The position numbers and the translations under genes are program-made. The notes below the pieces were generated by a model, which made no database searches, had not been told where the DNA came from, and saw nothing but the letters and a program-made list of their open reading frames with translations. Shown piece after piece: positions 1,622 to 2,999 of a stretch of DNA of 64,000 nt (position 1 is the stretch's first letter; each line of letters starts with the position of its first letter). Source of the stretch: a virus. Location of the stretch: the IMG/VR virus record IMGVR_UViG_3300045988_123958. One strand, written 5' to 3'.

Positions 1622-2999
1622 AGGCAGTTCGGCTCTCTCCTTATTTAAAAATCTCCAATAAGGAAGTCCCCAACGAATTGGGTCTAATTGAGTAATACCT
1701 AAAAGATAATTAGATAAAAAGCCAGTTGCAGAACCTCGCCCAGGACCTACGATACTTCCACATTCCCAAAATAAATTAATATAATGTTGAAAAGTATTAA
1801 AATAAGCAAAAAGACAATCATCTAATTTTTCGCCAATATCTTTTATGATATCAGCTTCAATTTCAAGTCGCTCTAAATAATTTTTATTATCATAAAGTTG
1901 CTTTTCTTGTAAAGCTTTAATACATTCATTTACCCAATATCGTTCTTGAATATTGTCGCTATTAATTAAAGAACAGATAATTGGATATTTATCAAACCAA
2001 TTTGAAGGAATGAATCCTTTCTTGTAATCCTTTACTTCAACTTTTGGAATAATTTGTTTTCTTTCTAATGAATAAAAAGAAATTTTATTTTGGATCTCTT
2101 GAGTGTTATCAAGAATCCAATTTATCAATTCTTTTCCTGTTTTATTATCTTTATCCCAATCATTAGCATAAGGTTCCATTAATTCAAAAATTTCATCACT
2201 TGTCATTAAGTAAGTAAATTTATAAAAATCGTCAACCTCTCTTTCTCCTGGCTTAGAAGTAAGATATGCTTTATGAATGGGTCTATCTTCTTTAGTTAAA
2301 TAATGCGCATCTGTTCCAACTACCATTTTTAAATCAAACGCCTTGGCGATTTGATAAATTTTATGATTTACAATTATTTGCTCAGCGTCAGTAGATGGCG
2401 CACATTCAAGATAAAAATCATCTTTTCCAAATACTTTAATACAAAAATTGATATAATCAATTATTTGATTGTAATATTTAGTTTGAGTTTCAATATCTTT
2501 ATTTAATTCTGCTTGGAACATTGGTAAAATACAGCTACCGAGTTCTCCACCAATACAAGCAGTTGTTGCTATAACATGCCCTTTATATTGTTCCATTACC
2601 ATTTCAAGTTCACTTTTTAAAGTAGGAACTCGTTCCATACGTCTATCAACATAACTATGAATCCAAGCAATAGAACTTAATTCTCTTAATGCTTTATGTC
2701 CGATGGCATCTTTAGCAATAAGAATAAAGTGGTAATATTTTTGTCCGTTATCTCTTGTATCAGTGAGATAAATTTCATTACCAAGAGCAATAGTAAAATC
2801 AGGATTTTCTTCTCTTATTTTTTTTGCATATTGATTTACTTCCATATGTGCAGAAAGACATTCATGGTCTGTAATGGCGATGCCCGATAATCCTAATTCT
2901 ATTGCTTTATCAATTAGTGCTGTTGGTCGATTAATACAGTCAAAGTAAACGGAGATTCGAATACATAGTATGTGAATGGCAATTAAAATATGATCTCAT
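1622..2999 (-). CDS. dnaE: DnaE-like Pol III alpha exon 1 (PHP domain through GPGRGSATG...RFLNKERAELP); needs a +1 frameshift at 2939-2945
   Basis: ATG at 2999 with AAAGGAGGG SD; MRSYFNCHSHTMYSNLRLL in frame 1 meets TGA, and the PHP motif continues (D)CINRPTALIDKAIELGLSGIAITDHE in the +1 frame; GTDAHYL and GPGRGSATGFLSNYLLGITQLDP motifs downstream. Confidence 0.75.
2939..2945 (-). other. putative programmed +1 frameshift site CUU_UGA_C (same heptamer as the RF2/prfB site)
   Basis: Frame 1 reads ...LRLL then UGA; skipping one U gives GAC UGU AUU = DCI continuing the conserved PHP domain. Confidence 0.4.

Follow-up and report, generated by a model that had tools for sequence, protein, structure and literature searches.

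How does a virus make full-length DnaE from a gene whose reading frame stops after 19 codons? This question is raised by the dnaE locus of the IMG/VR virus record IMGVR_UViG_3300045988_123958, of which we analyzed a stretch of 64,000 nucleotides (64 kb; hereafter the window), with all of its genes on the minus strand. The first codons of dnaE encode the N-terminus of a PHP domain and run into an in-frame UGA, while the conserved remainder of the protein is encoded in the +1 frame. Comparison with related genes leads us to consider it very probable that expression of the window dnaE relies on a +1 ribosomal frameshift at a shifty stop, CUU_UGA_C, that has been maintained in evolution. The whole case is one of sequence comparison, and all examples of the dnaE frameshift are drawn from metagenome assemblies.

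The frame break at the 5′ end of dnaE

Frame 0 opens at ATG 2999-2997 (minus strand), which is preceded by AAAAGGAGGGTCGGAGTTAGA, and consists of 19 sense codons, MRSYFNCHSHTMYSNLRLL, ending at TGA 2942-2940. This leader open reading frame (ORF; 2940..2999, minus strand) encodes the HxH motif of the PHP domain. Its last codons are R17 (CGT, 2951-2949), L18 (TTA, 2948-2946) and L19 (CTT, 2945-2943), and a C (2939) follows the stop. The start-site Shine-Dalgarno (SD) region, AAAGGAGGGTCGGAG (3005..3019, minus strand), contains GGAGGG at 3016-3011 and a second GGAG at 3008-3005. The conserved continuation, DCINRPTALIDKAIELGLSGIAITDHE..., lies in the +1 frame, starting with GAC 2941-2939, and is open for 440 codons to the exon end at 1622. 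An earlier note on this DNA had described a PHP N-terminus from ATG 2999 that runs into UGA, a continuation in the +1 frame, and CTTTGAC at 2939-2945; all of these coordinates were confirmed. Exon 1, read in the +1 frame (DCINRP...RFLNKERAELP; 1622..2941, minus strand), is predicted from its Pfam matches (PHP and DNA_pol3_alpha) to encode the remainder of the PHP domain and the first part of the polymerase core. Exon 2 (DIDIDLAPSKRP...; 1..466, minus strand), assigned from its sequence and Pfam, continues past the start of the window. No ATG, GTG or TTG is present upstream of the junction in the +1 frame, where the first ATG is at 2845, and the ORF caller reports a 425-residue ORF from that position.

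The conceptual fusion of the two frames matches the Pfam PHP family over residues 7-199, spanning the junction at residues 19/20, and DNA_pol3_alpha over residues 370-613. Hundreds of deposited phage DnaE genes are colinear with it, and tblastn alignments begin at query residues 1-8 among the 100 records listed. Deposited DnaE of SPbeta (YorL), Enterococcus phages and Staphylococcus phages align in one piece at ~45% identity. The fusion is also colinear across residues 19/20 with solved Pol III alpha/PolC chains (5lew_A, query residues 3-256; 7pu7_A, 3-256; 3f2b_A, 8-269). The HxH metal-ligand motif precedes the shift, while a conserved Asp and the TDHE motif follow it; thus, a working PHP domain needs the fused chain. 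The predicted tryptic peptide across the junction of the fused DnaE is LLDCINRPTALIDK.

CTTTGAC occurs six times in the window, compared to 5.9 copies expected, i.e. at chance frequency. The weight of the heptamer at 2939..2945 (minus strand) as a candidate shift site, therefore, comes from its position and the comparative data, not from its frequency. A scan of the window found no other CTT_TGA_C frameshift sites and no other +1 continuations at its TGA stops.

Recurrence among relatives

Related phages, whose dnaE genes the earlier note had pointed to as a check, carry the same one-base insertion at the same junction in 44 IMG/VR contigs. A protein-guided scan of IMG/VR gathered 77 dnaE loci (51-100% identity), of which 75 were informative. 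Sixty of these are continuous and 13 need a +1 shift exactly at the Leu|Asp junction. The 13 loci are spread over at least five separate lineages of the tree; 12 read CTT_TGA_C or CTT_TGA_T, and one reads CTT_CGA_T. Apart from in-frame TAG codons and one singleton +2 case five codons upstream, no further breaks were found in the 440 codons across the sampled loci.

A scan with the nucleotide pattern of the junction retrieved the 44 genuine frameshift dnaE contigs from 31 datasets, as well as 7 additional chance matches. Four more frameshift contigs are found in metagenome-assembled genomes (MAGs) binned as Lachnospiraceae, Erysipelotrichaceae, Clostridium and Bacteroidaceae. A second, codon-agnostic scan, which allowed any Leu codon and any inserted base, gave exactly the same 44 contigs. 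All 44 use CTT, with an inserted T in 43 and an inserted C in one; by comparison, only ~25% of continuous alleles in the unbiased sample have CTT at the junction Leu. Frameshifted alleles account for ~17% of the clusters in that sample, with continuous alleles in the majority, and pattern scans for continuous alleles gave at least 120 matches for each of two patterns. The frameshift contigs cluster into 24 groups at 80% identity, which were compared with 48 continuous clusters. The window and two related loci, L001 and L038, represent separate genomes at 96% nucleotide identity with the same frameshift site. No close relatives were found among deposited phages: megablast of 25 kb gave no match, blastn of the junction region gave at most 77% identity over short stretches, and an 82-nt query of the frameshift context gave chance matches only.

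A few related loci depart from this pattern. Locus L068/L080 (IMGVR_UViG_3300045988_159916) reads CTT_CGA_T, with a sense codon (CGA) in the A site; it has a frameshift-type SD and still needs a +1 shift, but it is a single contig in which a base error is possible. Locus L066/L261 (IMGVR_UViG_3300045988_181728) reads TAT TCT CT AAT, a 2-nt insertion that would need a +2 re-pairing from UCU to UCU; it is a singleton, with no second genuine example in a pattern scan. At about five codons upstream of the +1 site, L263, L264, L265 and L266 (also L051/L052) read TAY TCT TAG TCT AAT, exactly two codons more than the rest of the family. This motif is found in three diverged dnaE lineages from four datasets, and its TAG is the sole in-frame TAG over the 1153-1314 codons available for L264 and L266 (426 and 532 codons for L265 and L263, respectively). 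The sequence UCU_UAG_UCU fits either a +6 hop from UCU to UCU across the stop or suppressor read-through that would add two residues. Finally, dnaE homology in L071 (IMGVR_UViG_3300045988_165556) begins with CIGGEL, and the segment ahead of it, before residue ~129, ends in ...NVIVHN; this segment resembles the C-terminus of an intein that interrupts the PHP domain.

Selection on both reading frames

The ratio of nonsynonymous to synonymous substitution rates (dN/dS) in the downstream frame is low in pairs of frameshift-bearing genes: 0.018 at a dS of 0.19 (exon 1 of the window versus frameshift-bearing L001), 0.041 at a dS of 0.55, and 0.046 at a dS of 0.64. The low values (0.02-0.05) extend to the 32 codons between the junction and ATG 2845, and up to 1310-1664 codons are open after the shift. 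Differences in the leader are mostly synonymous in frame 0, as in L091/L112 (7 nucleotides, no amino acids) and L081/L089 (4 nucleotides, no amino acids). The start codon, the SD and the HxH..YSN.RLL motif are kept in frame 0 by all 24 representatives of the frameshift clusters. These comparisons indicate that both frames are under purifying selection and that dnaE is a functional gene.

A conserved signal at the shift site

The extended signal, CGT TTA CTT TGA C (2939..2951, minus strand), is enriched in frameshift alleles at the level of clusters. In Fisher tests, which treat the 80%-identity clusters as independent and, thus, somewhat overstate significance, C follows the stop (GAC) in 21/23 frameshift clusters and in 12/48 continuous clusters (p=1e-7), or in 6/36 if only CTT-using continuous alleles are compared (p=1e-8). 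With the same tests, the Leu codon in the E site is TTA in 22/24 versus 18/48 clusters (p=1e-5), and the preceding Arg codon is CGY in 22/24 versus 27/48 (p=0.003). The consensus of the frameshift alleles is CGY_UUA_CUU_UGA_C. These enrichments indicate that the signal itself (C after UGA, UUA in the E site and CGY for Arg) is under selection. The site lies near the start of the ORF: codon 20 is the stop in the window, and the Leu in the P site falls at codons 18-24 in the frameshift alleles.

Other searches around the site were negative. An Rfam search of 1-3300 gave no match at E≤0.1, and matches in a promoter scan were not above those in shuffled sequences. No association was detected between the frameshift and TAG recoding: frameshift loci resemble continuous loci in coverage gain and in their numbers of in-frame TAGs. 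A search of the window for release-factor genes (GGQ motif) was negative, and neither a release factor nor a special tRNA was found near the site in the window or in 37 related loci.

Start-site SD and exchange of 5′ cassettes

Frameshift alleles also have a stronger and distinctive SD, typically RGGAGGGAAGGAT ahead of the ATG. The mean energy of the duplex between SD and anti-SD is -12.8 kcal/mol for frameshift and -10.5 kcal/mol for continuous alleles (p=9e-5); the window dnaE, at -12.1 kcal/mol, ranks 11th of the 73 ORFs in the window. SDs of the G[AG]GGG type are found in 20/24 frameshift clusters but only 7/47 continuous clusters (p=2e-8), and an SD with a second GGA in 13/24 versus 0/47.

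Within the clade of the window, the two states are associated with different 5′ modules. The frameshift module reads ...GGAGGG.(T/C)GGAGTTAGA-ATG...CGYTTACTT-T, while the continuous module has a weak SD and reads ...GATGAAAGGAATGTGCGA-ATG...CGTCTATTA. In a comparison of L005, L008, L011 and L012 with L002, L009, L013, L015 and L017, the two modules share 28-36% identity in the 25-nt leader region and 68-79% in the 57-nt leader ORF, whereas the gene bodies behind them are 94-100% identical (100% over the next 300 nt for L012 versus L002). These alignments indicate that frameshift and continuous 5′ ends are swapped as cassettes on near-identical gene bodies, implying recombination within ~100 nt of the dnaE start.

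Evaluation of alternative explanations

Several observations count against a maintained, programmed frameshift. Besides the limitation of the Fisher tests mentioned above, at least ~21 changes of state are needed on a tree of 89 representatives, a turnover that could mean that the site is easily gained and lost and not that its function is valued. The frameshift is not essential to the family, as relatives with 99% protein identity manage without it, and it is present in none of 60 deposited phage DnaE genes (a spread sample from 376 matches). The earlier note had likened the site to that of prfB, the gene for release factor 2 (RF2). This likeness holds for the heptamer and its early position in the ORF, but the internal SD-like stimulator by which the prfB motif is defined is missing. 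In the 24 cluster representatives, no internal SD-like, G-rich element precedes the CTT (the 12 nt in the window are AAT CTC CGT TTA); the sole SD is that for initiation, 57 nt or more (about 65-85 nt) upstream of the site. An RNA structure that could act as a stimulator was not detected either: minimum free energies of four windows do not separate the alleles, with only a weak trend in the opposite direction. Without an internal SD and RNA structure, the efficiency of frameshifting in the real host could be low. The earlier note had also held that relatives with a continuous frame would refute frameshifting. Such relatives do exist, reading CTA TTA GAT at 99% protein identity. They do not refute programmed frameshifting, however, since they carry a different 5′ cassette with a weak SD, and the frameshift is missing from prfB itself in 36% of bacterial genomes (PMC12421855).

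The same shift could instead be a compensated indel, where a T inserted in CTT GAC is tolerated because ribosomes slip often enough, and where the context and SD evolved only to restore yield; frameshifting would then be real, but a burden rather than a control device. CTT GAY is a common ancestral state that one added T automatically converts to CTT_TGA_Y, and 'corrective' or compensatory frameshifting is a recognized class (PMC5009743). The frequent state changes and the existence of near-identical genes with continuous alleles agree with such an origin, and simple compensation predicts stronger SDs. However, a one-base deletion could restore the frame at any time, yet an optimized signal of multiple parts is retained. 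The share of the frameshift state (~17% of clusters in the unbiased sample), its persistence over a dS of 0.55-0.64 in frameshift-only pairs and over saturated divergence in a frameshift-only subclade, and the lack of such insertions elsewhere in the sampled 440-codon region also argue against a tolerated accident, which we regard as unlikely. An error of sequencing or assembly in the TTT run, with CTT GAC as the true genome, was the alternative raised in the earlier note (a homopolymer indel). It has in its favor only that a single base, within a short homopolymer, separates the two sequences. The identical insertion recurs in 44 viral contigs from 31 datasets and four MAG contigs, in every case after CTT at this one junction and at no other place in the gene. 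It is common to three separate genomes (the window, L001 and L038; 96% nucleotide identity) and goes together with a different SD and different choices of synonymous codons. This recurrence, the co-varying context and the selection on both frames exclude such an error, which is effectively refuted already and which we consider hardly credible.

The ORF caller's 425-residue product from ATG 2845 could be taken to mean that dnaE is a pseudogene, or that it is split into a mere upstream ORF for a 19-residue peptide and a truncated DnaE that starts downstream. A DnaE from that start would lack three parts of the PHP domain: HxH, the Asp that follows the junction, and TDHE. The low dN/dS (0.02-0.05) includes the stretch of 32 codons ahead of ATG 2845, the leader keeps its start, SD and HxH in frame 0 in 24/24 clusters, and the +1 frame offers no ATG, GTG or TTG ahead of the junction; a broken or divided gene is, thus, very improbable. 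It is about as hard to believe as the proposed error that the extra base is handled by transcriptional slippage, by a phage tRNA that reads the quadruplet CUUU, or by an alternative genetic code, even though the code of this phage is non-standard (TAG is sense), tRNA genes are present, and the window represents only ~1/3 of the genome. A run of three T is far below the known slippage sites of RNA polymerase (8 or more; PMC3711429). None of the six window tRNAs is a Leu tRNA or has an unusual loop, and no tRNAs are found near the 37 related loci. TGA read as a sense codon does not rescue the frame, as it meets a TAA two codons further on. The selected C after UGA and the weak E-site codon, in contrast, are what ribosomal slippage at a stop predicts.

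Proposed mechanism of frameshifting

In the proposed +1 frameshift, ribosomes would initiate at ATG 2999 from the strong SD and translate 19 codons. At this point they would pause: the P site would hold peptidyl-tRNA-Leu on CUU, the E site the weakly paired codon UUA, and the A site UGA-C, at which termination is poor. In some ribosomes, the P-site tRNA would re-pair one base forward, from CUU to UUU, and read GAC (Asp) and the +1 frame onward, resulting, after splicing of the intron, in full-length DnaE with the family-typical junction ...RLL-D.... In the other ribosomes, RF2 would end translation, giving a 19-residue peptide. The strong SD at the start would most simply compensate for ribosomes lost at the stop.

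This scheme draws on published properties of prfB. CTTT and TGA-C form its hyper-conserved core, where CTTT is the slippery site and TGA-C terminates poorly (PMC12421855). A bare 10-mer of the prfB site shifts at 27% in a cell-free system (bioRxiv 10.1101/2025.10.02.679949), and in E. coli the prfB site without its SD shifts at ~10% at high and ~50% at low ribosome load, the SD-less site being more sensitive to load (PMC6815119). E-site codons with weak A:U pairing raise +1 shifting, an effect that fits the conserved UUA (PMC2377451). A model in which ribosome collisions stimulate the shift was dropped, since high ribosome load lowers +1 shifting at prfB (PMC6815119).

P-site slippage of tRNA-Leu in competition with RF2 is what we infer from these parallels, as are its efficiency and any regulatory use. 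DnaE output would vary inversely with RF2 activity and, given that there is no internal SD stimulator, would be expected to depend on ribosome load; such dependence on RF2 and load would follow from the cited prfB work. It is plausible that the site senses the efficiency of UGA termination (RF2 or ribosome load). More tentatively, and with considerable doubt, the CUU_UGA_C cassette could be a portable, trans-acting gauge of termination capacity that couples polymerase synthesis to the activity of host or phage RF2 and the availability of ribosomes. It might then be one of several 'shifty-stop gates' in the first 25 dnaE codons of a phage group that largely recodes stop codons, together with UCU_UAG_UCU and CUU_CGA_U, tying the replication program to the decoding state.

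TAG recoding, a probable dnaE intron and other features of the window

The window phage reads TAG as a sense codon. ORF coverage increases from 0.79 to 0.905 once TAG is treated as sense, and Pfam domains extend across in-frame TAGs in three genes, encoding a RecJ-like protein (6 TAGs; matches to DHH, DHHA1 and RecJ_OB), a lysin (9; Phage_lysozyme2 and Amidase_2) and a radical-SAM/SPASM protein (3). Examples of TAG-containing genes are located at 8863..7115, 32171..30870 and 35620..34328 (minus strand). No suppressor tRNA (CUA) is present among the six tRNAs of the window, which form a cluster at 57755..63180 (minus strand): Cys-GCA, Lys-TTT, Gly-TCC, Ser-GGA, Ser-TGA and Thr-TGT. The tRNA cluster adjoins an EcoRI-like adenine methyltransferase and a GmrSD-N/HNH gene. 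Exon 1 of dnaE contains no TAG. Some relatives have a single in-frame TAG in dnaE at conserved positions (L016 and L074 at codon 43, L018 at codon 150, L034 at codon 413); TAG reassignment thus reaches replication genes in parts of the family.

The two dnaE exons are separated by an insertion of 1155 nt (467..1621, minus strand) with an ORF for a NUMOD3 homing endonuclease (NUMOD3 match, 5.5e-17) that contains in-frame TAGs. The insertion is absent from L001, L038, L005 and L015, and the DNA_pol3_alpha match is continuous across the spliced exon junction. The last base of the 5′ exon is T (U), and that of the insert is G. The insert is, thus, probably a group I intron, although no ribozyme core was matched by Rfam at E≤0.1 (1-3300).

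The load of genes resembling homing endonucleases in the window is unusually high. GIY-YIG-like N-termini (IYKITN..YIG) are found on at least five free-standing ORFs, which contain 3-8 in-frame TAGs each (40349..39609, 29375..28620, 26729..25986, 19614..18682 and 12929..12252, minus strand). An 832-residue protein (53579..51081, minus strand) has shoulder and repeat domains of the major vault protein; its gene adjoins that of a DUF2828/DUF7788 protein (55261..53696, minus strand), a pairing that is unexpected in a phage. Genes for gyrase A and B are located at 24901..22526 and 28638..26827.

Comparison with known recoding systems

The E. coli prfB frameshift is at codon 26. The dnaE site is similarly early, with its stop at codon 20, and in both cases frame 0 yields a short, dead-end peptide. 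Both sites have the sequence CUU_UGA_C, with the same slippery codon, the RF2-specific stop and the conserved C after it. As in dnaE, the prfB motif is polymorphic across lineages, being absent from 36% of bacterial prfB genes (PMC12421855). However, the dnaE site lacks the internal AGGGGG SD-like stimulator located 3 nt upstream in prfB, and has instead a conserved weak E-site UUA and a reinforced start-site SD. The dnaE gene is viral, with frameshift and continuous states exchanged as 5′ cassettes, and its product is a polymerase rather than RF2; any dependence on RF2, therefore, would act in trans and would not be autoregulatory. By these comparisons, the dnaE site would work like that of prfB but differs as an element: four sequence features are shared, while the internal SD and the autoregulatory logic are not.

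In the +1 frameshift of yeast Ty1 (CUU_AGG_C), the tRNA in the P site slips on CUU during slow decoding of the A-site codon, similar to what is proposed for dnaE. The CUU_CGA_U of L068/L080 resembles a Ty1-like, sense-codon version. Among phages of Firmicutes, Listeria phage PSA reportedly has programmed +1 frameshifts in its capsid and tail genes, which yield C-terminally extended variants beside the normal product; the dnaE shift differs in that it is N-terminal, in a replication enzyme, and obligatory for a functional product. Antizyme (UCC_UGA_U) is a case of a +1 shifty stop that acts as a sensor (see also PMC1874602). Ty1 and antizyme are both eukaryotic and have other stimulators, and no small-molecule sensor is implied for dnaE. 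Recoding inside the gene of a replicase subunit is known from dnaX, where a -1 frameshift gives tau and gamma of the Pol III holoenzyme (PMC3711429). The dnaX shift occurs at A_AAA_AAG with SD and hairpin stimulators, and both products are functional, whereas the dnaE shift would be +1 at a stop, with the polymerase as the shifted product only.

With TAG as a sense codon, the window phage resembles the TAG-recoded gut phages (phAss-1 and the clades of Borges et al.), and its DnaE is 44% identical to that of phAss-1 (PMC10607447). Some TAG-recoded phages encode RF2 (bioRxiv 10.1101/2021.08.26.457843). Neither of these two papers on stop-codon reassignment (PMC10607447 and bioRxiv 10.1101/2021.08.26.457843) mentions frameshifting or recoding of a DNA polymerase. 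We found no earlier report of a +1 frameshift in dnaE, or of CUU_UGA_C in a polymerase gene, in the open-access literature, and a dnaE frameshift is absent from the accessible part of a large recoding review and from the GeneTack survey.

To our knowledge, few programmed +1 frameshifts have been described in bacteria or in bacterial viruses, with prfB as the main gene that uses CUU_UGA_C. The dnaE site would add a second use of this sequence, widespread and evolved independently, in a replicative polymerase and with different helpers. The natural matched pairs, in which the same gene body is preceded by either a frameshift or a continuous cassette, make the purpose of such a device testable. 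Gene callers truncate or split these dnaE genes, and the annotation of gut and rumen phages should model the site alongside TAG reassignment.

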